Below, in pieces: positions 10,211-54,336 of a stretch of 64,000 nt of DNA. Origin of the DNA: Candidatus Parcubacteria bacterium. GTDB taxonomy: Bacteria > Patescibacteriota > Minisyncoccia > Minisyncoccales > JAGMDC01. Where the stretch lies: contig JAGMAD010000001.1 in the NCBI GenBank assembly GCA_023130975.1, forward strand, positions 17,238 to 81,237. The letters are read 5' to 3'. Made by a program: the position numbers and the translations under genes. The notes under the pieces were generated by a model, which saw nothing but the letters and a program-made list of their open reading frames with translations, ran no database searches and was not told the DNA's origin. Positions within the stretch are counted from its first letter, which is position 1; each line of letters starts with the position of its first letter.

Positions 10211-11332
10211 TTATTTTTTTAATATTTCTCTAAATGCCTTAATTACTTTTTCTAAATCTTCTTTATCAATAGAAAAAGTAGAAAGTTTGAAATGCTTGGT
10301 AAGGCCTGGTTTTATTCCTGTTATTCCTCGTTTCTTGAGTTCGTAATGCAAGAAAAATCTCCCTTTTGGATGTTTTAATGAAATTTTATAAAATGGCTCT
10401 GCTTTAAAAAATATTAAATCGTGTTTATGGGGTTTATCGCCTATTTGTTTCAGGCCTAATTTCTCCATTTCTTTTGAAAACCATTGGGCTTTTTTCTTTT
10501 CTTTTTCCCAATTTTTGACTCTTTCTAAAACAGCAGGGAATGAAGCCATTAAAGTAGCCATAGCTGTTCCTCTTAATTCAGAACCTAAAAATTCTATTTC
10601 TTGTTGAGGATAGATTTTTGATTTTCTCAAGATGATTTTTTCCCATTTTTTATCCATACCCAAGACGCCAATAGGTCCGGAGGAAGCCATTGATTTTTGG
10701 CCTGAACCAATTATGAAGTCAGCTCCAAGCTCCTTCATAGAAATTGGCATTCTTCCCACTGCATAAGCCCCATTGATTAAATACGGAACCTGGTATCTTT
10801 TGACAATCTCTCCCAATCTTTTGGCATCCGGTAAATTCCCATAATTTCCATCAGGATAAGTTAAAAGAACCAGGGCTGGTTTATGTTTTTTGATTAAGTC
10901 CTCATAATCCTCTACATTTATTTTATATTCCGGCTCTCCAGAATTTGGAACTTCAACAACTTTTAAGCCAGTCCTTTCAGCTGCTATAATGGTGGTATAA
11001 TGTCTGTTTCCATCAACAAGTATTGTCTTGCCTGGTTTTGCAATGGAATGTATTACATTAAATATGCCTTCCCTTACTCCAAGAGTAATTCTAACAATAT
11101 CTGCCCCCAAAAATTTTGGCATGGTTTCCTGAATAAATTCTTTAATTAAAGGCATTTCCATCAGTTCTAACCCAGGACTAAGATCATAGATAGAATATCC
11201 ATCACCAAACTCAACCAAGGCCTTTTCTGCCACCTTAGTTAATTCTCCTCCTTTCTGGATGGGATTTAAGTTAATCAATCCCTTATTCTTTCTTTCTAAT
11301 TTCTCAAATTTTTTGAGATTTTCATTAGTCAT
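10211..11332 (-). CDS. pscS: O-phospho-L-seryl-tRNA:Cys-tRNA synthase (SepCysS) homologue, cysteine-free
   Basis: Full-length similarity to archaeal SepCysS as recalled (INLNPIQKGG, GDGYS, VRITLGVREG, LLTYPDGNYGNLPDAK, NGAYAVGRMP, PLP-Lys motif GSGQKSMASSGP, TLMASFPAVLERVKNW, YELKKRGITGIKPGLTK). Overlaps sepS by 8 nt. Confidence 0.85.
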   Translation of the reverse strand: MTNENLKKFEKLERKNKGLINLNPIQKGGELTKVAEKALVEFGDGYSIYDLSPGLELMEMPLIKEFIQETMPKFLGADIVRITLGVREGIFNVIHSIAKPGKTILVDGNRHYTTIIAAERTGLKVVEVPNSGEPEYKINVEDYEDLIKKHKPALVLLTYPDGNYGNLPDAKRLGEIVKRYQVPYLINGAYAVGRMPISMKELGADFIIGSGQKSMASSGPIGVLGMDKKWEKIILRKSKIYPQQEIEFLGSELRGTAMATLMASFPAVLERVKNWEKEKKKAQWFSKEMEKLGLKQIGDKPHKHDLIFFKAEPFYKISLKHPKGRFFLHYELKKRGITGIKPGLTKHFKLSTFSIDKEDLEKVIKAFREILKK

Positions 11333-12752
11333 TTTTCTCTATTTCCATATCCACAAAAATAGGACCCCTAACATCAATCTTTTTGTTTTTTGAGGTGATA
11401 AATTTTTCCATTACTTTTTCTAATTCCAAATTAATTGACGGCAAAGTATCAGCTATTTTTATGGTATGCCTGCCAAAAGATTTCTTTTCAGCCAGCCAAG
11501 CGAACAAATTGGAAATCGCTTCTATGTAACTGTAGACCTTAATTCCTTTTTGAACCTCTTTTTGAAACTTTTTATCATTTTTATTTATTCCTAAAATATT
11601 TCCTTGATAAACATAGACAGTATTTAATCCGGCCGGTCCCAACAGTTTTTTATTGGTCTCGGGTTCGCTGATAAAAATTTTAACATCCTGATCCTTATAA
11701 ATTAGAAATTTTTGGGGACCAATTTCATCTTTGTATTTCAAAATGGCTTTTTCAATTTTTTTCTTTAATACTTTGCCTATTTTTGTCTTTGGCTGTTTTT
11801 TTAATTTAATATGAGAAGCAATTTCCTTATCATTAAAGACAGAAGAGGCATAAAATTGGGGATAAACCAATTTCCGAATATCAGTTATATTTTTTTTAAG
11901 CATGGCGAGCCGTTCCACCCCAAAGCCAACATTGAAAACCGGGTAGGGGATATTGTAATTAGACAAACTTATCGGAGAGTATAGCCCGCCATCTCCAACC
12001 TCTATGTTTTTATCTTTCTGTTTCACAAAAACTTCAAATTCTGTTTCCGGGGCGTAATAATTTGATGTCGCTGTTTTGGTTTCAAAGATAACTTTTGGAA
12101 AACCCATTTTTGAGAGGATTTTTTTTGTTAGGATTTTGCCTTCATTTAAATCAAGCTTTTTATCAACAACCACCAAAGAAGCGCTTAGGGACTCGTAAAG
12201 ATGCAAAGAATCTTGCTGCTGTTCTCTTCTAAATTTACTTCCGATAGAGAAAAGCTTTAAGGGAAGAATGTTTTTCTTGATGAGAGAGTTAATGGTCAGA
12301 AACCAAGCAGCAGTCATATGGGAACGGAGAACAGATTTTGTTGGTATTGGCTTTAATTTTTTGAGTTTTGGGAATAAAGTTAAAATCTCTGTTGCTTTTT
12401 CTGCTTTTATTTTTAACTTTTTGACCATTTCTTCAATCAAGTTATCAGCCTCTATCGTCCCTTTTTTAAATTCACGGAAGATTTTTTGAAGCTCTTTAAC
12501 ATCAATATCGGCAATTTTTTTTATCTCTCCAATGGTTTTTTTGGATATCCCAAGTTCGGGGATAGGAAGACCAGCTAAATAAAAACTCCTATTTAAAATA
12601 AGAGGAGCTTCGGCTCCATATTGCCTGTAAACATCTTTTTCCTGAATAATTGAAGGGTTTATTATTTCTTCAAACCCATAATCAAGAAAAACTTTTCTAA
12701 ATTTTTCAGTTAGCTCAATAACAGAATGTGGCTTACCTTTTTTTCTTTTCAT
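11325..12752 (-). CDS. sepS: O-phosphoserine--tRNA ligase (SepRS)
   Basis: Near-collinear with M. jannaschii SepRS as recalled (FYLAGLP, FKKGTIEADNLIEEM, LRSHMTAAWFLT, LPLKLFSIGSKFRREQ, YYAPETEFEV, GLYSPISL, NVGFGVERLAM, VYPQFY, KKLLGPAGLN..VYVY.GNI, IDVRGPIF). Start moved to the ATG at 12752 because the tracked extension runs through the tRNA-Cys gene. Confidence 0.9.
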   Translation of the reverse strand: MKRKKGKPHSVIELTEKFRKVFLDYGFEEIINPSIIQEKDVYRQYGAEAPLILNRSFYLAGLPIPELGISKKTIGEIKKIADIDVKELQKIFREFKKGTIEADNLIEEMVKKLKIKAEKATEILTLFPKLKKLKPIPTKSVLRSHMTAAWFLTINSLIKKNILPLKLFSIGSKFRREQQQDSLHLYESLSASLVVVDKKLDLNEGKILTKKILSKMGFPKVIFETKTATSNYYAPETEFEVFVKQKDKNIEVGDGGLYSPISLSNYNIPYPVFNVGFGVERLAMLKKNITDIRKLVYPQFYASSVFNDKEIASHIKLKKQPKTKIGKVLKKKIEKAILKYKDEIGPQKFLIYKDQDVKIFISEPETNKKLLGPAGLNTVYVYQGNILGINKNDKKFQKEVQKGIKVYSYIEAISNLFAWLAEKKSFGRHTIKIADTLPSINLELEKVMEKFITSKNKKIDVRGPIFVDMEIEKND

Positions 12753-12753
12753 A

Positions 12754-12824
12754 AGCCGGGAGGGAGAGTCGAACTCCCTTGAACCGGTCTGCAGCCGGCC
12801 GCATATCCGTTCTGCCATCCCGAC
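12754..12824 (-). tRNA. tRNA-Cys (anticodon GCA)
   Basis: Hand-folded cloverleaf. Acceptor GUCGGGA/UCCCGGC, U8, D stem GCA(G)/(A)UGC, anticodon arm GCCGG-CUGCAGA-CCGGU, 4-nt variable loop, T arm GGGAG-UUCGACU-CUCCC, discriminator U73. CCA is not encoded. Confidence 0.85.
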
Positions 12825-12864
12825 CTGTTTTTTTTATTATATCTAATATAAGCAATTCTTTCAA

Positions 12865-12961
12865 CCCCCATACCATAACAAGGATAGGCGAATTCGCAAA
12901 GCGAATTCGCTAACCCGCCAAACCCTTTGGGTTTGGCGGAAATCCTTGTTTGGTGTGGGGG
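12865..12961. mobile_element. GC-rich palindromic MITE-like element, family 1, intergenic copy (97 nt)
   Basis: Termini CCCCCATACCATAA / TTTGGTGTGGGGG. Extended stem ACAAGGA/TCCTTGT. Two inner hairpins (gcgaattcgc x2; ccgccaaaccc-ttt-gggtttggcgg). Flanked by direct tcaa/tcaa. Confidence 0.6.
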
Positions 12962-16698: not shown

Positions 16699-16836
16699 GC
16701 CCGAGGCAACCTTGTTCTGAGCTCGTCCTGAGCTCGTCGAAGGACTGCCTCGGGCTTTTGTTTTTCATTGATAAAAACCCAAAAATGAGTTAAATTAAAA
16801 GAATGGAGGAAAATAAAAACAGAATAAAAGATTTAG
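16699..16836 (+). repeat. Duplication copy A: GC terminator hairpin, radC promoter and first 11 radC codons
   Basis: gcccgaggc...gcctcgggcttttgttttt, then attgataaaaacccaaaaatgagttaaattaaaagaATGgaggaaaataaaaacagaataaaagattta. Matches 17523-17671. Confidence 0.85.
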
Positions 16837-16861
16837 CGAAAGTTAAAAAATATTTAAAAAT

Positions 16862-17522: not shown

Positions 17523-17671
17523 TGCCCGAGGCGATTGCCTCGGGCTTTTGTTTTTGATTGCTATTGAGTACCAAAAAAACCTGTCCTGAGCCTGTCGAAG
17601 GAATTGATAAAAACCCAAAAATGAGTTAAATTAAAGTAATGGAGGAAAATAAAAACAGAATAAAGGACTTA
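17523..17671 (+). repeat. Duplication copy B: terminator hairpin plus the functional radC promoter and 5' end
   Basis: TTGATA (17604-17609), 17 nt, TAAATT (17627-17632), 6 nt, ATG 17639. Differs from copy A by two synonymous changes in the 11 shared codons. Confidence 0.85.
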
Positions 17672-18325
17672 CCCAAAGTAGAACGGCCGAGAGAGAAATT
17701 AATTTTGAAAGGGCCCGAAAATTTAAAAGATGAAGAACTTCTGGCAATTTTGCTTCGGACTGGCAGGGAAGGCAAAAATGTTTTAGATTTAGCCAAGCAG
17801 ATTTTGAATAAACATTCAAAAAAGCGTTTTTTGAAGATGAGATACGAGGATTTAATAAAAGTGAAAGGAATAAACGAAGCCAAGGCCTGCACAATTCTCG
17901 CCAGTATGGAATTAGTCAAAAGAGCCTTAAAAATCCAGGATGAAACCTTACCAATTATTAATTCTTCTAAAGATGTAATAGCTCAAGCCGTTTATTTGAG
18001 AGATAGAACTCGCGAACACCTAATGACTATTTATCTCAACGCTAGAAATGAGATGGTTTGGAAAAAACAATCGACATTTATTGGCACTTTAAATACCAAT
18101 TTAGTTCATCCCAGAGAAATTTTTCAAGAAGCTTTAAAACACAATGCCGCCTCAGTAATTTTAGTCCACAATCATCCTTCAGGAGATAGCGAGCCATCCC
18201 AAGATGACTTAGAAATAACAAAGAGAATTATTGAAGCCGGCAAAATAATGGGCATAGATGTTTTAGACCACATAATCATCACCAAAACCAAAGCATTCAG
18301 CTTCAAAGAAAAAAAGTTGATATAA
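17639..18325 (+). CDS. radC: RadC-like JAB/MPN domain protein
   Basis: IKDLPKVERPREKL N-terminus, HhH region, JAMM motif HNHPSGDSEPSQDD. Confidence 0.9.
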   Translation: MEENKNRIKDLPKVERPREKLILKGPENLKDEELLAILLRTGREGKNVLDLAKQILNKHSKKRFLKMRYEDLIKVKGINEAKACTILASMELVKRALKIQDETLPIINSSKDVIAQAVYLRDRTREHLMTIYLNARNEMVWKKQSTFIGTLNTNLVHPREIFQEALKHNAASVILVHNHPSGDSEPSQDDLEITKRIIEAGKIMGIDVLDHIIITKTKAFSFKEKKLI

Positions 18326-26031: not shown

Positions 26032-26727
26032 TTGATGATTTTAGAAAAAATGAACTACCTTGCCCCAAGGCGCAAGGTATCTCTTCGGGCAAGTTCTTTC
26101 GGCGGCTTTCATTCCCGCCGCTTGCGACGGGATATTTTCGCCACCGAAATAAAAAATAATTTATTCTTTTGTTCAGTTATAATAATATTTGTTATTTTCT
26201 TTTTAATTGACCTAATAATAGGAGATTCTCAATTATTTTTAATAATAAATAAAAAAATTGCCAATCCTTATTTGGATTGGATAGTTATTTCTATATTTTA
26301 CCCTTTATTTTCTCTTTTATTTATTGTTCCTTTAATTTGTCTTTTTAAAAAAGAATGGAGAAGAGCAAGTTTGATTGCTTTAATCTCTGGGCCGCTGAGT
26401 TATATTATAGGTGATTTTCTTAAAATTTTAATTGCCAGACCTCGACCATTTGAAGTTCTTTCTGTCAATTTATTAGGTCCTTGGCATACCACTAGTTTTT
26501 CCTTTCCTTCTACTACTACTGCCTTAGTTTTTGGCTTAGCTCTTCCATTTTTGATTTATAAAAATAAGTTTGCAGGTTTGCTTATCCCTATTTCTTTTTT
26601 AGTTGGATTTTCTGTAATTTATACAGGGTTTCACTTTCCCTTAGATGTAATGGCTGGCGCAATTCTTTCCTTAGTGCTTGTACTTTCTCTATCTATTTTT
26701 CTGACGAAGTTTAACATCAAAAAATAA
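26032..26727 (+). CDS. PAP2-family phosphatase (start uncertain)
   Basis: KILIARPRPF, SFPSTTTA, GFHFPLDVMAG PAP2 motifs. The first ~40 codons are the translated family-2 repeat element. Confidence 0.75.
   Translation: MMILEKMNYLAPRRKVSLRASSFGGFHSRRLRRDIFATEIKNNLFFCSVIIIFVIFFLIDLIIGDSQLFLIINKKIANPYLDWIVISIFYPLFSLLFIVPLICLFKKEWRRASLIALISGPLSYIIGDFLKILIARPRPFEVLSVNLLGPWHTTSFSFPSTTTALVFGLALPFLIYKNKFAGLLIPISFLVGFSVIYTGFHFPLDVMAGAILSLVLVLSLSIFLTKFNIKK
26050..26154 (+). repeat. GC-rich hairpin repeat, family 2, copy a (~105 nt)
   Basis: atgaactaccttgcc..cgggcaagttctttcggcggctttcattcccgcc..ccgaaataaaa. Aligns with 31512-31592 on the same strand. Confidence 0.7.
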
Positions 26728-30731: not shown

Positions 30732-31025
30732 CTATATGTCTTCTAAAGAATATAATCTATAGTTCCTGGAAAGATACCAACGATCTAGCAAAAAGAGAGT
30801 GGTGCCTAAGTAAACGAAAATCGATCCTGTCACATATAAACAAATTGTCAATCCTCTTGTCAATCCTCCAAAATCCAAAGTCCATGCTACAGCTATGAAT
30901 ATCAATCCAGTTACCATGTTAGTTACATGGTATTTTACTCTCTCTCCAATACTCATTTCCATCTTTTTTCCAGTTATCATGCTGGTTACATAATGTTTTA
31001 CTTTCTTTCCAATACTTATTTCCAT
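30732..31025 (-). CDS. Small membrane protein with internal tandem repeat
   Basis: ATG 31025 with SD aggagg. MEISIGKKVKHYVTSMITGKK / MEMSIGERVKYHVTNMVTGLIF duplicated ~21-aa unit, then two TM helices. Tracked N-terminal extension rejected. Confidence 0.5.
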   Translation of the reverse strand: MEISIGKKVKHYVTSMITGKKMEMSIGERVKYHVTNMVTGLIFIAVAWTLDFGGLTRGLTICLYVTGSIFVYLGTTLFLLDRWYLSRNYRLYSLEDI

Positions 31026-31187
31026 CTTTTTATCACCTCCTATTCTGTTTAAAACAATGCTACACGTTACGTTCCGGATAGGATTTGAATCTGCGTCTTC
31101 GGCTCGAGAAGCTAAAATACTAAACTGAACTATCACCACCGGAGCATTATTAAAGATAGCATTTTTTACGATTTGTGTCAAGCGAAA

Positions 31188-31874
31188 TTATCGTAATTTG
31201 AAATTTACGACGAGATAACCGACGCCGAAAGGGTATTCGTATGATAAAATTTCCGGCTGCCAATTTAAACCCGAGGCCTGTAAAATTCCTAAAAGAAAAG
31301 AAAAAGAGCGCAGGCCGCATTCGCCGGCCTCTGGAAAATATTCATCTAACTTCAAAAAATTTTTAATATCTTTTTTCTTTAGATATTCAATCAATGCCTT
31401 GTCAAATTTTGGACCATCAGGATGAAGACCATAAGGACCATCTTCTTTTAAGCAGTGAGACATATCACCAGAAGCGATCAGGGCATATCTCTTTTCTTTT
31501 TCCAATTTATTATGAACTACCCTGCCCTTCAGGGCAGGGTATCCCTCCGGGCAAGTTCTTTCGACGGCTTTCATCCCGCCGCCGAAATAAAACTTTTTTC
31601 CTCGTTGATAATAAAAATCAGGAGTTTTATCAGGAATAAATAATTGCCGGCTTGGAATACGTTGCTTAGGATTTAAGAAATAAAGCGGAACGTTAAAACC
31701 CCAATCAGGATGAGGAGAGGAAATAATAATATTGTTAGGATTAGATTCCTTTAATTTTTTTCCTAAAAACTCCAAATTTTCAATTGTTTTTTTAACTTTC
31801 TCTCTATCCTCTAGCGAGCCAACTTCAGGCAAAAGCAGGGGAGGATGAGGAGAAAAGCAAGCAAAAGAAATCAT
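31188..31874 (-). CDS. Memo/LigB-superfamily protein (AmmeMemoRadiSam system protein B-like)
   Basis: FSPHPPLLLPE, IASGDMSHCL, AGECGLRSF. Located between the AMMECR1 and radical SAM partners. Confidence 0.65.
   Translation of the reverse strand: MISFACFSPHPPLLLPEVGSLEDREKVKKTIENLEFLGKKLKESNPNNIIISSPHPDWGFNVPLYFLNPKQRIPSRQLFIPDKTPDFYYQRGKKFYFGGGMKAVERTCPEGYPALKGRVVHNKLEKEKRYALIASGDMSHCLKEDGPYGLHPDGPKFDKALIEYLKKKDIKNFLKLDEYFPEAGECGLRSFSFLLGILQASGLNWQPEILSYEYPFGVGYLVVNFKLR
31512..31592 (+). repeat. GC-rich hairpin repeat, family 2, copy b (~81 nt) inside the Memo-like gene
   Basis: atgaactaccctgcccttcagggcagggtatccctccgggcaagttctttcgacggctttcatcccgccgccgaaataaaa. Translated antisense as FGGGMKAVERTCPEGYPALKGRVVH. 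Confidence 0.7.
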
Positions 31875-31889
31875 AAAAATCTCTAATTT

Positions 31890-32981
31890 TTAATTTAAAA
31901 TTAAATTTAAATCTTCTTCGCATTTAGCGCATTTGCCGTTTTTGTCAAAACGTTTGATGGTATAGCCGAGCCGCTCAATTGCCAAAGTCCCGCATTTTGG
32001 ACAATAAGTGTTTTCGCTTTCTAAACCCGGCACATTACCAGTATAAACATATTTTAAGCCAGCTTTTTTACCAATTTCAAAAGCCATTTTTAATGTCTCA
32101 ACCGAAGTATCAGGTAAGTGCTGTAATTTCCAAGAAATTGTACCAGAAAATTGAGAAATATGCCAGGGCGTTTCAATACCTAACTCGTTTTTAATAAAAT
32201 TAGCGATATTTTCAAACATTTCTTTAGAATCAGTTAAGGTAGGAATGACTAAAGTTGTTACTTCTAGCCAAATGTTTTTTCCTTTCAAACGCTTTAGAGT
32301 ATCTAAAACTGGCTGTAATAGTCCGCCGCAGTATTTTATGTAAAACTCATCAGAAAAACCTTTTAGGTCAATATTCGCGGCGTCAAGATAAGGAGAAATT
32401 AAATCAAAAAGTTCTTTTGACCAAAATCCATTGCTAACCCAGACATTTTTTATTCCTTGCTTTTTAGCTAATTTCATTGTATCTAAAGCATATTCAGAAA
32501 AAATGGTAGGTGAAGTATAGGTATAAGCAATAGAAGGTAAATTATTCTCTTTGGCAATTTTAACAATTTCTTCTGGCGATAAATCTTCTCCTTCAATCTT
32601 TCCAGTCAATTGAGGCATTTGAGATATATCATAATTTTGGCAATTTGCACATCTAAAATTACATCCTACAGTGGCGATAGATAATGACTGAGTACCGGGT
32701 AAAAAGTGAAATAAAGGTTTTTTTTCAATAGGATCAATATTACAGGCAATAGCTTTGCCATAATTCAGGGCATAAAGTTTTCCATCAATATTTTCTCTCA
32801 CACCGCAAATCCCTCTCTTTCCTTGTTCAATAACACAATAATGAGCGCAATTTCGGCACTGAACAATTTTGTTCTTTAGTTTTTTGTAAAGATATGCTTC
32901 TTTCACCCCCACACCATAATAAGCACCGGCACCTTTGGTGCCAAAAGACGAAGTATGTGTTTGTTTGGTGTGGGGGTTCAT
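31890..32981 (-). CDS. AmmeMemoRadiSam system radical SAM enzyme
   Basis: N-terminal Cys cluster (CRNCAHYC..GICGVR), radical SAM CNFRCANCQN, C-terminal CPKC..CAKC ribbon. Confidence 0.85.
   Translation of the reverse strand: MNPHTKQTHTSSFGTKGAGAYYGVGVKEAYLYKKLKNKIVQCRNCAHYCVIEQGKRGICGVRENIDGKLYALNYGKAIACNIDPIEKKPLFHFLPGTQSLSIATVGCNFRCANCQNYDISQMPQLTGKIEGEDLSPEEIVKIAKENNLPSIAYTYTSPTIFSEYALDTMKLAKKQGIKNVWVSNGFWSKELFDLISPYLDAANIDLKGFSDEFYIKYCGGLLQPVLDTLKRLKGKNIWLEVTTLVIPTLTDSKEMFENIANFIKNELGIETPWHISQFSGTISWKLQHLPDTSVETLKMAFEIGKKAGLKYVYTGNVPGLESENTYCPKCGTLAIERLGYTIKRFDKNGKCAKCEEDLNLILN
32906..32976. mobile_element. Family-1 MITE-like element (71 nt) inserted just after the radical SAM start codon
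   Basis: CCCCCACACCATAA...TTTGGTGTGGGGG, flanked by direct ttca/ttca (32902-32905, 32977-32980). Confidence 0.65.
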
Positions 32982-33503: not shown

Positions 33504-34092
33504 TTATAATAAAACGTCTATCACCACCTTCTCTGACATCTCTTTATACCTATTTCGTATGGTAACTTCGGCCACGAATCAAACGTTTTTTCATTGCTTT
33601 CCGGTACAATACTGATGCCGCTTCTCTGATGTCTCTTGAGAGTCCAAGCGCACAAGCCATTCGGTCTATCTCAGAAAGAGCGAAAATAAGACTCCTTTCA
33701 CTAGTCATAAGTCCACTATCTCTAACTCTACGTCGCATTCTTCGAAAATCATCTCGTCCTTGAAAATCTTTAGGAAGAAGATTACTTAGTCCTTTATCAT
33801 GTATTCTATTAGTCATTGGTGCTCCGACCCTCACTCTCTTTGAGAATTGCTCAGAGTCAAAAGCCCGCCATTCCGGGCCAAGGTCTATGATATTTTCTGC
33901 TATTACCATACCACACTCAGCACAATAAAGTTCGGCGCGTTTGCGATCCAGTATTAAATCTTTAGAGCCGCATTCAGGACACTTTCTTATTCTATTTGGA
34001 CCTTCTATATTTAAGTTTTCATCATTATTATCATTATTCTGGACAAAATTACGTTTCAATCTTTCTTTAGCTTCTACACTCACTTTTATCAT
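33504..34092 (-). pseudogene. Archaeal-type transcription initiation factor B (TFB/TFIIB), internally deleted remnant
   Basis: ORF 33550-34092 encodes the Zn ribbon, B-reader and B-linker up to ..LIRGRS, then a stop. An overlapping shifted frame across that stop reads [23 protein letters not shown], the conserved TFB C-terminus. Confidence 0.7.
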
Positions 34093-42268: not shown

Positions 42269-43816
42269 ATGGAAAAAGTTGATAGATTAAGAAAAAAATA
42301 TCCGAGATTTGTTTATGAAAAATATTTTTATCAAATCTTTAAAAATGATTTAAAGATTTTTTTTGATTTTAGGATAGCTCCTGACATTAGATTTAGACCA
42401 ACAATAATTGTAAAAAATATTGACAAACAAAATTTATCAATGATCAGTGATAAATTATTAGATAATCTTGTTTTTCATTTGGGTTTAATGGAAATTCCCA
42501 GTTATTGGAAAACTACTTGCTCGCCAGAAATTGAAATTAGAGCCGGCTATTTAAATAAAGAACAAATTAAATGGTGGAAAGATTTAATTATCAATGGAAT
42601 GGGCCAATTCTTTTATGAAAATAGGATTGATTTCAGAGAGTCAAGTTTTCTAAAAATTATTTCAAATGAGCAAAAAAGCGGGCGAAGACGGACTTCGCCT
42701 GCTTCGTTCAATTTGGGCGAAGTCCGTCCTCGCTTTGTCTCGCAAAAAAATAGATTTTTAATCCCAATGGGAGATGGCAAGGATTCAATTGTTACTTTAG
42801 AGCTGCTAAAAAGAAAAAAGTTAGAGGTTAATTGTTTTATTGTTAATCCTTTTAAAGAGCATTTTAAGATTTTGAAAATCGCAGGAATTAAAAACCCCGT
42901 AATTGTAGAACGGAAAGTTGATCCAACTTTATTAGCATTGAATCGAAAAGGATTTTTAAACGGACATACGCCGATAACTGCTTTAATTTCCAACTTAGCA
43001 GTTTTTTGCGGAGTTTTATTTGGTTATGGAAACGTAGTAATGTCCTGCGAGAAAAGCGCTAATGAAGGTAATATAAAATACTTGCCCCCACACCATAATG
43101 GAGACATGCCGCTTTCAGCGGCGAAATTAGCAAGGCCAGCCCCCATTTGGTGTGGGAGTAAAGGAAAAATCATTAATCATCAATGGTCAAAAAGTTTTGA
43201 ATTTGAGGAAAAATTCCGATATTATTCTAAGAAATATTTAACAAAAGAAGTAGAATATTTTAGTTTTTTGCGTCCTTTATATGAAATTCAAATAGCAAGA
43301 TTATTCTCTAAGCTTACAAAATATTTTTCGGTTTTCCTTAGTTGTAATGAGGCATATAAAACTGCTTCTGGAACCAAAAAACCAACTGGCAAATGGTGCG
43401 GGAAATGCTCAAAATGCTTGTTTATTTGGACAATTTTATATCCTTTTGTAAAAGAAAAAGAGCTGATTAAAATTTTCAAAAAAAATCTTTTTAAAGATAA
43501 GAATCTAATTCCAATAATGAAAGAACTAATAGGGGATAGTAAATGCAAGCCACTTGAATGTGTGGGCACAAAAAAAGAAAGCTTAATTGCTTTTTACCTA
43601 TCATACAAAAAATCCATAGGTGACACCTATGGCAATTTCTATGGCAATAGTGATAATTTATCGGCTTTGTTGAAATACTTTCAAAATAAAGTTTTACCGA
43701 ATTACTCAAAATTAAAATTAGAAAATGATTCAAAAAGGATATTAAATTCATGGAATAAGCAAAATAATCTTCCTAAAAAATTTGACAAAATTTTACGAAA
43801 AGCATATTATAAATGA
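42269..43816 (+). CDS. PP-loop-like / Cys-cluster protein in the dcw cluster; candidate UDP-MurNAc-L-Ala-L-Glu epimerase (MurL-like)
   Basis: FLIPMGDGKDSIVTLELL resembles an SGGxDS-type ATP pyrophosphatase loop. GKWCGKCSKCLF is a QueC-like Cys cluster. Sits between mraY and murD. The family assignment is an inference. Confidence 0.4.
   Translation: MEKVDRLRKKYPRFVYEKYFYQIFKNDLKIFFDFRIAPDIRFRPTIIVKNIDKQNLSMISDKLLDNLVFHLGLMEIPSYWKTTCSPEIEIRAGYLNKEQIKWWKDLIINGMGQFFYENRIDFRESSFLKIISNEQKSGRRRTSPASFNLGEVRPRFVSQKNRFLIPMGDGKDSIVTLELLKRKKLEVNCFIVNPFKEHFKILKIAGIKNPVIVERKVDPTLLALNRKGFLNGHTPITALISNLAVFCGVLFGYGNVVMSCEKSANEGNIKYLPPHHNGDMPLSAAKLARPAPIWCGSKGKIINHQWSKSFEFEEKFRYYSKKYLTKEVEYFSFLRPLYEIQIARLFSKLTKYFSVFLSCNEAYKTASGTKKPTGKWCGKCSKCLFIWTILYPFVKEKELIKIFKKNLFKDKNLIPIMKELIGDSKCKPLECVGTKKESLIAFYLSYKKSIGDTYGNFYGNSDNLSALLKYFQNKVLPNYSKLKLENDSKRILNSWNKQNNLPKKFDKILRKAYYK
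42678..42743. repeat. GC-rich 66-nt hairpin insert (family 3) inside the MurL-like ORF
   Basis: Arms gcgaagacggacttcgcc (42682-42699) and ggcgaagtccgtcctcgc (42716-42733), 17/18 complementary. Flanked by A runs. Translated as GRRRTSPASFNLGEVRPRFVSQ. Confidence 0.65.
43085..43158. mobile_element. Family-1 MITE-like element (74 nt, degenerate right end) inside the MurL-like ORF
   Basis: CCCCCACACCATAA...ATTTGGTGTGGGAG. Inner hairpin gccgc-tttca-gcggc. Translated as PPHHNGDMPLSAAKLARPAPIWCGS. Confidence 0.55.
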
Positions 43817-51880: not shown

Positions 51881-52555
51881 TCACTTTCCGAAGCGGCGGT
51901 GGTGAAGAAAGTATTCATAAAGGGCTGTATCTAAGTCCTTTTCAGTAAAATCAGGCCAATATTTATCAAAAAAGAAAATTTCAGAATAGGCGGCCTGCCA
52001 GATTAAAAAATTAGAAATCCGTTTTTCCTTGCCAGTTCTGATAATTAAGTCAAGGTCAGCCGTCCAAAGATTTTTGGAAATTACATCTTCATTAATTTTT
52101 TCTAAAGAAATTTTCTTTTTAATTATATTTTTTATTGCCTCAACAATTTCAGCTCTGCCGCCATAACTTAAAGCAATATTCAAAATCATATTTTTGTTAT
52201 TTTTAGTAATTTTTTCAATCCTTCTTATTGCCTTTTGAAGGTCTTTAGATAATCTTTGCTTCTGACCAATAACCACAACCTTAATTCCTTGTTTGTCAAG
52301 GTCTTTAACATCTAAAATGCTCTTAATCAAATACATTAAATAATTTATTTCTTTTTTGGGCCTTTTCCAGTTCTCAGTGGAAAAAACAAATAATGTTAGA
52401 ATTTTTATTCCTTTGTTTTTAGAGGCCTTAATAATATTCTTTACCACTTCTCTGCCCTTTTTATGGCCATCAAAAACAGGCAAATTCTTCTCTTTCGCCC
52501 ATCTTCTATTTCCATCTAAAATAATGCCTAAATGATAAGGTATTTTCTTTTTCAT
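51881..52555 (-). CDS. uppS: Isoprenyl transferase (cis-prenyltransferase, UppS family), paralogue 1
   Basis: HLGIILDGNRRWA, FVFSTENWKRP, IRTGKEKRISNFLIWQAAYSE, RRFG. Confidence 0.9.
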   Translation of the reverse strand: MKKKIPYHLGIILDGNRRWAKEKNLPVFDGHKKGREVVKNIIKASKNKGIKILTLFVFSTENWKRPKKEINYLMYLIKSILDVKDLDKQGIKVVVIGQKQRLSKDLQKAIRRIEKITKNNKNMILNIALSYGGRAEIVEAIKNIIKKKISLEKINEDVISKNLWTADLDLIIRTGKEKRISNFLIWQAAYSEIFFFDKYWPDFTEKDLDTALYEYFLHHRRFGK

Positions 52556-52567
52556 TTAATTAAATAA

Positions 52568-53578
52568 TCAGAATAAAAAATCTCCTTCTATGTTAATTTC
52601 TTTTGGCAGAAGCCAGGGAAAATTGCTTCTAGAGAAATAAACTGTTTTTTTAATTATTTTTGAAAAAATAATTTTTGGCAAGAAAAATTTATTAACTTCC
52701 TTCTTATATTTTATAAAATCTGGAAAATTCTTCAAGAGAATATCAGCTGATATTAAAGACCATACCACTCCCCCGCCGGACCAGGGTTTGGTAAGACCAG
52801 TAGCATCGCCACAAAGAGTGATTTTAGAATTTTTAGGAATTATCGGCACTAATGTTTGGGGAATTATGGCTGCTTTTCTTTTCAGAAGATAAATTTTCTT
52901 TTCTTTTAAAAATCTATCGAAATAATTCTTTGCTTTCTTAAAGTCCTCCATTATCCCATATTCTATATTTTCTCCTCGAGGGATTCTCCAAATAAAACCA
53001 GAATTAGTTGCCCAGGTTTCTAGATAGTTAGAATTATCTTTTTTTTCTAAAAATCCTTGAATAGCCAAGAAAAATCGCGGTTCTGAAAGGTTTAATTCTC
53101 TTCTAATAACAGAATTTGCTCCATCGCAGCCAATAGTTCTATCAACCCCCACACCATAACGAGGACTAACTTCGTTAATTTTGGTGCCTTCAGCACCTTG
53201 TCCTCGTTTGGTGTGGGGGTCAAATTCCTTTGGAAAATCATCTATTTTATTGTTTAAAATAATTTTCGCTCCTGAATTTTGAGCTAGATGGGCCACTAAA
53301 TTATCTAATTTATAATGGCTCATTACGAAAAAACTTTTTTTAAAAATAATCTTTGAAGTTTTTCTTGGAAAGTGAATTAATACTTCTTTGATTTCATTTT
53401 GAATTAATTTCTTGCTTTCTGGAATAAAGTCAAAGATTCTTTCGCTAAAAAGGCCTGAGCAGACTTCTTTGCCTATTTTTCCTTTTTTTTCAAAGACAAT
53501 TACCTCCTCGCCTTTTTGGGAAAGTTTCCAGGCAAGATATAATCCTGTAATACCTGCTCCGACAATAACAATCTTCAT
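52568..53578 (-). CDS. FAD-dependent oxidoreductase, geranylgeranyl reductase family, carrying an in-frame repeat insert
   Basis: KIVIVGAGITGLYLA..EVIVFEKK dinucleotide fold. IGCDGANSVIRR. C-terminal CGDATGLTKPWSGGG. Confidence 0.75.
   Translation of the reverse strand: MKIVIVGAGITGLYLAWKLSQKGEEVIVFEKKGKIGKEVCSGLFSERIFDFIPESKKLIQNEIKEVLIHFPRKTSKIIFKKSFFVMSHYKLDNLVAHLAQNSGAKIILNNKIDDFPKEFDPHTKRGQGAEGTKINEVSPRYGVGVDRTIGCDGANSVIRRELNLSEPRFFLAIQGFLEKKDNSNYLETWATNSGFIWRIPRGENIEYGIMEDFKKAKNYFDRFLKEKKIYLLKRKAAIIPQTLVPIIPKNSKITLCGDATGLTKPWSGGGVVWSLISADILLKNFPDFIKYKKEVNKFFLPKIIFSKIIKKTVYFSRSNFPWLLPKEINIEGDFLF
53146..53219. mobile_element. Family-1 MITE-like element (74 nt) in frame inside the flavoprotein gene
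   Basis: CCCCCACACCATAA...TTTGGTGTGGGGG with inner stem ACGAGGAC/GTCCTCGT. Direct tcaa/tcaa flanks (53142-53145, 53220-53223). Confidence 0.7.
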
Positions 53579-53640: not shown

Positions 53641-54336
53641 TTAAGTACCAAACCTTCTCCAGCGATTACTATATTCTTTAAGAGCTTTATCTAAATCTTT
53701 TTCTGTAAAATCAGGCCATAGTTTTTTTAAAAAAACAAATTCAGAATAAGCAATATGCCAAAGTAGAAAATTAGAAAGCCTTTGTTCTCCACCGGTTCTT
53801 ATAACTAAATCGGGGAAATGATATGTACCGGCACAAAGATGTTCTGTTAGTACATCCTCTGTAACTTTTTCAGCTGGAATTCTTTTCTCAATTATTTTTT
53901 TAACCGATTCTACAATATCCCATTTTCCACTGTAGCTTACTGCCAAATTAATAAAAAAATTTTTGTTATTCATTGTTTTCTCTTCGGCCTCTTCTATAAC
54001 ATTTATTAGAGATTTGGGTAATTTTTCTACACAACCTATAACTTTAATTTTGGTTCCTTCTGCAATAGAGTCTTTCAAAATCTCTTTAATTTTCTCTTCA
54101 AAAAAAGACATTAAGAAATCAACTTCTTCTTTGGGTCGTTTCCAGTTTTCCATTGAAAAACCCCATAGAGTTACCATTTTTACTCCTCTATTTTTGCACC
54201 AATAAGTGAATTTCTTTAGATTATTGTAAGCGGCAGAATATCCTTCGGCTAAAGAAAGATTATTTTTTCTCGCCCATCTTCTATTGCCGTCAGCAATTAT
54301 TGCAATATGGTACGGAATTTTACTGATGTTTTTCAT
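53641..54336 (-). CDS. uppS: Isoprenyl transferase (UppS family), paralogue 2
   Basis: HIAIIADGNRRWA, WGFSMENWKRP, IRTGGEQRLSNFLLWHIAYSE, RRFG. Confidence 0.9.
   Translation of the reverse strand: MKNISKIPYHIAIIADGNRRWARKNNLSLAEGYSAAYNNLKKFTYWCKNRGVKMVTLWGFSMENWKRPKEEVDFLMSFFEEKIKEILKDSIAEGTKIKVIGCVEKLPKSLINVIEEAEEKTMNNKNFFINLAVSYSGKWDIVESVKKIIEKRIPAEKVTEDVLTEHLCAGTYHFPDLVIRTGGEQRLSNFLLWHIAYSEFVFLKKLWPDFTEKDLDKALKEYSNRWRRFGT

Follow-up and report, generated by a model that had tools for sequence, protein, structure and literature searches.

Within a 64,000-nucleotide (nt) stretch of DNA from a Candidatus Parcubacteria bacterium (hereafter the window), we analysed a 74-nt palindromic element, copy D of a repeat family that we term family 1, which lies in frame inside the gene for a geranylgeranyl-reductase-like flavoprotein. 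Copy D is quite likely to be a miniature, gene-less and non-autonomous copy of a mobile element whose full-length parents carry a GIY-YIG nuclease gene, and to be read in frame and translated as a probable loop of its host protein. Judged by the distribution of its termini among genomes and metagenomes, the family consists of mobile palindromic elements specific to Patescibacteria (the Candidate Phyla Radiation, CPR). [quoted passage not shown]

Copy D is an in-frame insertion in a flavoprotein gene

On the plus strand, positions 53142-53223 read tcaa-CCCCCACACCATAACGAGGAC TAACTTCGTTA ATTTT GGTGCCTTCAGCACC TT GTCCTCGTTTGGTGTGGGGG-tcaa, in agreement with a preliminary description of the locus, which had reported a 74-nt element with family termini, an inner stem and tcaa on both sides. 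Next to the perfect terminal inverted repeats (11/11 nt; CCCCCACACCA/TGGTGTGGGGG), position 12 is a single bulged T; beyond it lie an inner stem of 9 bp, with the halves ACGAGGAC/GTCCTCGT, and two small internal hairpins, giving overall ~20 bp of pairing with one bulge. The predicted fold is stable both as RNA (-46 to -49 kcal/mol, z about -8 versus shuffles) and as DNA (-29.5 kcal/mol, z -9.2 versus shuffles), and the G+C content of the elements is about 51% as opposed to 32.7% for the window. As in MITEs, copy D has no open reading frame (ORF) of its own and thus no coding capacity for a mobilising enzyme. At the gathering threshold, Rfam models matched three tRNAs only in the whole window and nothing on the element, and an intron, a ribozyme or a known RNA family was rejected after a permissive scan returned weak generic hairpin matches only. 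A terminator or promoter role was likewise set aside, since no more than a single weak antisense terminator-like match was obtained, as was an attC-like reading: the conserved ...AAC/GTT..., the one extrahelical base and the variable centre are suggestive, but arrays and an integrase are absent and a target duplication is present.

The host protein matches the Pfam families DAO, FAD_binding_3 and NAD_binding_8, and its AlphaFold2 model (mean predicted local distance difference test score, pLDDT, of 84) finds its best fold match in the Protein Data Bank with 3oz2, a geranylgeranyl-reductase-like structure. Its ORF reads ...DDFPKEF-DPHTKRGQGAEGTKINEVSPRYGVGV-DRTIGCDGANSVIRR, in which DPHTKRGQGAEGTKINEVSPRYGVGV separates ...PKEF from DRTIGCDG; copy D and one copy of the duplication add 78 nt, or 26 stop-free codons, encoding residues 120-145. 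Among 1534 homologues the closest are 310 residues long, that is, 336 minus 26, and one of these (P0002) is 90% identical to the host protein outside the insert. Read on the gene strand, the window has GAATTTGA-(74 nt)-TTGATAGA, whereas both P0002 loci (L001 and L002) read GAATTTGATAAG, with a single TTGA; the window locus has therefore gained 74 nt and a second TTGA. Copy D is thus confirmed as a true insertion with a 4-bp target duplication and an empty site in relatives. This is what the preliminary description had proposed, including the sequence GAA TTT GAT AGA expected after deletion of the element and one tcaa, where the closest orthologue has GAATTTGATAAG; the orthologue alignment it called for showed the closest orthologues to lack the insert and their DNA site to be empty. 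A homologous segment occurring independently of the family, which it had named as the contrary outcome, was not found: P0003, P0021 and P0013, the sole homologues in which a segment occupies this position, all carry recognisable family termini in their DNA. The exact 26-mer joining the two flanks, representing the empty allele of the window's own lineage, had no match in the Joint Genome Institute (JGI) metagenomes.

In the structural model, residues 118-141 fall below a pLDDT of 50 between well-modelled strands, and the insert probably forms a surface loop. The structure prediction suggested in the preliminary description thus agrees with a loop and goes no further, and the placement given there, between the substrate domain and the GxDGxxS motif, was approximately correct, the insert ending a single residue ahead of the strand that leads into G150-x-D152-G153-x-x-S156. 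The peptide signature PHTK...GTK...YGVGV had correctly been noted as common to this insert and to the N-terminus of a radical SAM enzyme encoded in the window (copy B, Table 1).

The family and its GIY-YIG-encoding full-length members

A pattern of exact termini identified 67 genome loci in about 40 Patescibacteria metagenome-assembled genomes (MAGs), including Nealsonbacteria, Paceibacterota, Staskawiczbacteria, Wildermuthbacteria, Minisyncoccales and others, and more than 120 family loci in metagenomes. The same pattern found no copy in viral contigs, and a phage vector was rejected on that count. Two matches, probably mis-binned, occurred in "Gammaproteobacteria" bins; the termini and flanks of one of these copies are shared with a Parcubacteria copy. 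Altogether 201 distinct copies were compared, 85 from the window and genome-derived loci and 116 from the metagenome set. Their termini, which start CCCCC, are essentially invariant, and their interiors are wholly divergent yet nearly always fold into an inner stem plus either one hairpin or two, among which loops of the GAA(G)/TTCG type are frequent. The inner stem is maintained by compensatory change, with 96.5% of cells paired and 86 double-sided changes versus 21.5 in shuffles, and pairing falls to 41-55% on sliding the partner; because orientation of the sequences relied on the three pairs adjoining the termini, pairs 16-21 alone are unbiased in this test. Flanks conform to Y-N-N-R on both sides in nearly all copies, and the flanking 4-mers vary among copies; exact identity of the two 4-bp flanks was observed in 42/85 copies of the first set (shuffles 7.6, maximum 16) and 65/115 of the second (shuffles 10.1, maximum 19).

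Most copies are 67-97 nt long, with peaks at 68, 71, 74 and 77 nt, and length plus 4 is divisible by three in 57/85 and 70/116 copies, or 127/201. Where a copy lies inside a long ORF, meaning one with 50 or more open codons to either side of it, the frame is always preserved (28/28 and 25/25, together 53/53, about a quarter of the 201 copies), and 36 of these 53 use the reading frame that gives PHTK...YGVGV. One frame always meets the TAA of the left terminus, and five copies end host proteins with ...TPTP*. Genes with in-frame copies include those for UvrA, MnmA, MurL, IscS, the AmmeMemoRadiSam radical SAM enzyme and the flavoprotein reductase; the uvrA gene of a Nealsonbacteria MAG (L007 4017-7118) holds two in-frame copies, AGPHTKRGQGTKGTQIGKASPRCGVGAG and SPPHHNEDKAPLAPELAKPVLVWCGGK, together with other Arg/Ala-rich inserts. 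Open frames make up 51-62%, compared with 45-48% when interiors are shuffled, so adaptation to open frames at the family level is weak and openness is mostly a by-product of the G+C content of about 51%. A count of host proteins by peptide word-index search found nothing, and an exhaustive search with a 34-residue peptide gave four matches: two spurious translations of repeats or CRISPR arrays, a 66-residue fragment with the element peptide, and a cysteine desulfurase with the insert.

Such behaviour resembles that of the RPEs, palindromes of ~100-150 bp which occur in frame in ORFs and are confined to Rickettsia (Ogata et al. 2000, 2002; summarised in PMC10969869), as the preliminary description had pointed out. 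In both cases the genome is reduced and AT-rich, palindromic repeats interrupt unrelated housekeeping genes without breaking the frame, no classical transposase is involved, and the repeats are translated as extra segments thought to sit on the protein surface (here deduced from the model). For family 1, palindromic and in frame in 53 long ORFs, translation is indicated by frame conservation and by a decayed copy discussed below. Unlike RPEs, family 1 is hosted by Patescibacteria, its copies are mostly shorter, and it has sharp 11-nt termini, a 4-bp duplication with empty sites and a gene-carrying full-length form, a separation drawn by description.

The full-length form was recognised in the metagenome set as a 304-nt element (L137 2680-2983) with family termini and TTGA/TTGA flanks, in which an ORF for an 85-residue GIY-YIG protein fills the space between the halves of the inner stem. 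This ORF has more than 540 homologues of 84-86 residues in Patescibacteria. Six of these, which are 69-92% identical, come from six additional neighbourhoods, such as the interval from rplJ to rplL or the vicinity of infA, and every one of the six lies between family termini. Full-length members of 304-309 nt thus share the termini and inner stem of the miniatures and carry one gene, for an 84-86-residue single-domain GIY-YIG nuclease (PF01541), which is not a known transposase. In 7/7 sampled neighbourhoods the ORF is bracketed by family termini, with the left end 23-28 nt before the ATG, the right end within 23 nt of the stop and a constant orientation relative to the bulged T. Residues Y5, Y16, G18, R26, H30, N31, E50, R61 and E62 are invariant in 23 aligned sequences, Y5, Y16 and G18 being the canonical GIY-YIG tyrosine and glycine positions, and the nearest relatives of solved structure are the UPF0213 proteins 1zg2 and 1ywl. 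Dispersed copies share assemblies with full-length ones; for example, in JAJYNK01 a 159-nt copy (L039:1807-1965) matches a 309-nt full-length copy (L214:573-881) on the left side (24/24 nt) and on the right side (44/44 nt), where the match includes the last codons of the ORF, and ORF fragments match as well. By this alignment, the 159-nt copy was derived by internal deletion from the full-length copy in its own assembly, and the two stand in the classical relation of an autonomous element to its deletion derivative. GIY-YIG ORFs in CPR genomes have also been recorded by a 2024 survey in non-intron insertions of rRNA genes, with no further analysis (PMC11270868).

Two observations extend the range of such arrangements. 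A full-length variant in L211 (573-885; termini CCCCCACACTAATTGAG / CTCAATTAGTGTGGAGG, flanks cgtg/cgtg) has GGAGGCGTG on both sides and stands directly before sequence resembling the 5' end of a tRNA gene, so that its right end may supply the first bases of the adjoining tRNA. More distant small GIY-YIG genes (40-55% identical; L148 1718-1903, L038 1321-1506, L175 1399-1590, L162 843-1061 and L101 9191-9388) lie between duplicated tRNA fragments or other inverted repeats, such as ATCCCGTTAGAGA/TCTCTAACGGGAT in L101, which suggests that further families with the same GIY-YIG/repeat architecture exist.

A related organisation is known from the Ssn nucleases, single-domain GIY-YIG enzymes that cleave single-stranded DNA site-specifically and whose genes are flanked by dispersed SRM/NTS hairpin repeats, a layout that its authors likened to an insertion sequence (IS) (Chenal et al. 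2025; PMC11893778). Family 1 likewise combines a single-domain GIY-YIG protein with a gene that lies within inverted repeats (in 7/7 cases) which are also dispersed in the genome, a likeness of size, domain and layout; across the two systems the proteins measure about 85-94 residues. Unlike the SRM repeats, the ends of family-1 elements pair with each other and delimit bounded units with a 4-bp duplication and empty sites, and the family includes miniature derivatives, with 53/201 copies in frame in long ORFs.

From the association of gene and termini we infer that the GIY-YIG nuclease mobilises the family. The nuclease of full-length copies, none of which lies in the window, would recognise the folded or extruded hairpin of the two termini, and its cuts would mobilise full-length and miniature copies, with host ligation and repair finishing the reaction. 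Shorter copies arise from full-length members by internal deletion. Insertions would land at many T-N-N-A sites (a Y-N-N-R target; TTGA for copy D), and in genomes that are ~87% coding the survivors would be those whose length plus 4 is divisible by three, which are free of stops and which sit in tolerant loops. Selective survival of this kind would account for the occupation of the same flavoprotein loop by different members in different lineages. The copy D insert itself would form a loop, disordered or at the surface, immediately ahead of the strand to the GxDGxxS flavin adenine dinucleotide (FAD) motif, and would probably be near-neutral for the enzyme.

A broader proposal, to which we would give a little less than an even chance, is that family 1 constitutes an unrecognised class of prokaryotic DNA transposon, with a minimal Ssn-like GIY-YIG nuclease acting on the hairpin of its own ends as its sole gene, and with gene-less miniatures that have remodelled many CPR housekeeping proteins in frame. 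If true, empty sites, duplications and deletion derivatives would provide direct evidence of transposition for the "IS-like" Ssn architecture, until now described only as a domesticated repeat/nuclease pair. Protein-coding palindromes, treated as a peculiarity of Rickettsia, here extend to a huge and unrelated radiation of reduced-genome bacteria, with clean empty sites and a candidate mobilising gene. An 85-residue protein with a 74-nt substrate offers a tractable system for studying element movement, in which it can also be asked whether GIY-YIG nucleases of the Ssn type act, or once acted, as transposases. CPR annotation and structure prediction are also affected, many proteins having inserts of 20-30 residues of selfish origin, and the presence or absence of copies could serve as strain markers in metagenomes.

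Alternative explanations and other repeat systems

Homologues of the flavoprotein gene also hold inserts. P0003 (L003) has the same 74-nt subtype as copy D in the same orientation at the same TTGA site; L071 (P0021) has a different, 59-nt family member at this position, and L072 (P0013) a decayed relative of that member, whose fold is lost (z -0.6) and which is still in frame. L074 retains a 29-nt remnant elsewhere in the gene, and core positions 112-119 hold inserts in about 12/120 aligned family sequences. As these loci read, two or more distinct members of the family have inserted at this site in separate lineages. A single old insertion in a common ancestor shared with the P0003 lineage, followed by precise loss from P0002, P0004/P0006, P0005 and P0007, could explain the matching site, orientation, subtype and TTGA flanks of the window and L003, and precise deletion would readily act on a hairpin between 4-bp direct repeats. 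Nevertheless, the gene tree, which groups P0001 with P0002 and P0003 with P0007, demands at least four precise losses under that history and only two gains otherwise. Furthermore, 21/21 conserved residues inside the insert use identical codons in copy D and L003, compared with 164/238 (69%) outside it, and the similarity of copy D to the L003 copy (89%) is equalled by its similarity to a copy in an unrelated gene (92%, L032). Given also the 59-nt member of L071, which indicates that the site was hit repeatedly, a single insertion appears unlikely, and repeated independent insertion into a tolerant loop is favoured. The decayed L072 copy bears equally on whether the 78 nt are translated at all. 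A very stable hairpin between identical 4-mers could in principle be removed from the mRNA, or be bypassed by the ribosome, which would take off from one repeat and land on the other as happens in T4 gene 60 and the mitochondrial "byp" elements. Neither process would require the length to be divisible by three or the frame to be open, yet both hold for all 53 long-ORF copies; the L072 copy stays in frame despite the loss of its fold, and the element matches no Rfam family, ribozyme or intron model. We therefore infer that the insert is transcribed and translated, and regard its removal or bypass as highly improbable.

A different objection concerns what moves the family. DDE-type cut-and-paste transposition is classically recognised by terminal inverted repeats and a short duplication of the target, and termini starting with CC with a 4-bp duplication may point to elements of the IS1380/piggyBac type; copy D might then be an ordinary MITE moved by an unseen DDE-type IS with the same termini, the GIY-YIG ORF of the long copies being a passenger, such as a free-standing homing-endonuclease gene in a hairpin loop. 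The related small GIY-YIG genes between other repeats or beside tRNA fragments would fit a gene that is mobile on its own account. Conversely, an autonomous IS was sought in all fetched CPR loci (about 1.3 Mb), both as family termini 170-4000 nt apart and as GC-containing inverted repeats of 15 nt or more with a spacing of 500-3500 nt; family termini nowhere formed a pair at IS distance, the sole long pair being that of the 304-nt L137 element, and a Pfam scan of 54 window ORFs revealed no transposase domain. Moreover, the fixed position and orientation of the ORF in 7/7 contexts looks like an integrated unit and not a random nested insertion. Mobilisation by an unseen transposase is therefore, in our assessment, rather improbable. 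The favoured explanation, for its part, has several findings to contend with. GIY-YIG nucleases hydrolyse DNA and are not known for strand transfer, which does not by itself account for insertion with a duplication, and tblastn found no GIY-YIG homologue within the 64-kb window. About half of the copies have no exact flank match yet keep Y..R at the outer flank positions, contrary to what simple decay of a duplication predicts; copy C adds exactly 78 nt though its flanks differ. The surface exposure of the copy D insert is deduced from a low-confidence stretch of a predicted model.

Family 1 has the attributes of bacterial MITEs, being short, gene-less and non-autonomous with terminal inverted repeats, direct repeats from a duplication with an empty site, and derivation from a longer gene-carrying element. 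Coxiella QMITE1/2 (PMC5896051) and intragenic ERIC and BOX elements (PMC10969869) also fuse to ORFs, some in frame or giving new C-termini or stop codons, and palindromic insertions in frame have occasionally been recorded for Coxiella and enterobacterial MITEs. Unlike family 1, those MITEs measure 150-400 bp, are mostly intergenic and species-restricted, and have a known or presumed origin in DDE insertion sequences. Repetitive extragenic palindromic (REP) sequences and REPINs carry a GTAG or CGTC tag, are extragenic, produce no target duplication and are associated with a Y1 transposase (RAYT) flanked by the same repeat. The resemblance lies in hairpin repeats spread alongside a single-copy nuclease gene that repeats flank; family 1 differs in termini that start CCCCC and in the 53/201 copies within long ORFs, and it does not belong to this group. 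One REP/RAYT-style unit does occur in L001 (4438-5279), a gene for a 247-residue Y1_Tnp (RAYT-like) protein between inverted copies of the hairpin GGCGAAG-N5-CTTCGCC, with a 52%-identical homologue in L044 (7663-7998); a link to family 1 was rejected, as the hairpin is a different repeat and no family-1 terminus lies within 20 kb. Palindromes derived from IS200/IS605 have no terminal inverted repeats, make no duplication and insert 3' of a fixed tetranucleotide, whereas family 1 has inverted-repeat termini and flanking 4-mers which vary between copies and match within a copy, and so falls outside that group as well.

Further copies, repeats and genes in the window

The terminus motif occurs eight times in the window (0.16 expected from shuffles), corresponding to four elements, A to D (Table 1).

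Table 1. Positions in the window of copy D, its target duplication and host gene, and the other family-1 copies.
Feature	Positions	Strand	Evidence and context
Copy D, 74-nt family-1 element	53146..53219	.	Termini, motif counts, folding, stem analysis
Left 4-bp target duplication copy	53142..53145	.	tcaa on + strand, TTGA on gene strand; empty site GAATTTGATAAG in L001/L002
Right 4-bp target duplication copy	53220..53223	.	tcaa flank; L001/L002 empty site
Host gene, 336-aa FAD-dependent oxidoreductase, geranylgeranyl-reductase-like fold	52568..53578	-	Pfam, AlphaFold2 model, PDB fold match, 310-aa orthologues
Copy A, 97-nt intergenic family member	12865..12961	.	Flanks tcaa/tcaa; between tRNA-Cys and GtrA-like gene
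Copy B, 71-nt family member	32906..32976	.	5' end of AmmeMemoRadiSam radical SAM ORF 31890-32981(-); flanks ttca/ttca
Copy C, 74-nt family member, in frame as PPHHNGDMPLSAAKLARPAPIWCG	43085..43158	.	In 515-aa MurL-like ORF 42269-43816(+); flanks cttg/taaa; L001 orthologue site empty

The ATG of the radical SAM ORF overlaps the duplicated 4-mer of copy B, and the identical insertion is found in L059 and L060, where the start arrangement (ATG-AAC-CCC-CAC; window 32972-32981) is conserved as well; copy B may have supplied or shifted the N-terminus of this enzyme. At the site of copy C, the MurL orthologue of L001 is shorter by exactly 26 residues. The same orthologue (L001 19262-20932) has five other G+C-rich in-frame inserts of 7-24 residues, for example GPPASATPARSDAATSGKPKALRAG and SYPACPERSRRELAEG, which are absent from the window gene, and other element families appear, from this comparison, to behave likewise.

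Additional repeats were also identified in the window. Another repeat family (ATGAACTACCYTGCCC...GGGCAAGTTCTTTCGRCGGCTTTCAT) has two copies, at 26050-26115 and 31512-31577, which are 83% identical and contain internal hairpins, both lying within ORFs, at the N-terminus of a PAP2 protein and in a Memo/LigB-like protein. Copies of a 77-nt repeat (92% identical; 16767-16843 and 17603-17679) lie upstream of an NYN-domain gene and of radC, and a 63-nt tandem duplication (30906-31031) falls within a small ORF (30732-31025). The flavoprotein gene itself sits between two paralogous genes for UppS-type cis-prenyltransferases (51881-52555 and 53641-54336), which match each other along 140 nt at 75% nt identity (repeat D1); L001, the sister genome, contains a single such gene.

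Two further loci concern genes of the window at large. Positions 10211-12825 encode a SepRS-like class II synthetase (PF01409 and SepRS_C) and an enzyme of the SepCysS/SepSecS family (PF05889) with tRNA-Cys(GCA) adjacent, which looks like an indirect Cys-tRNA pathway in a CPR organism. Finally, a 180-residue ORF (33550-34092) has a strong match to a TFIIB-type zinc ribbon (PF08271, E 2.5e-18), unusual in a bacterium.

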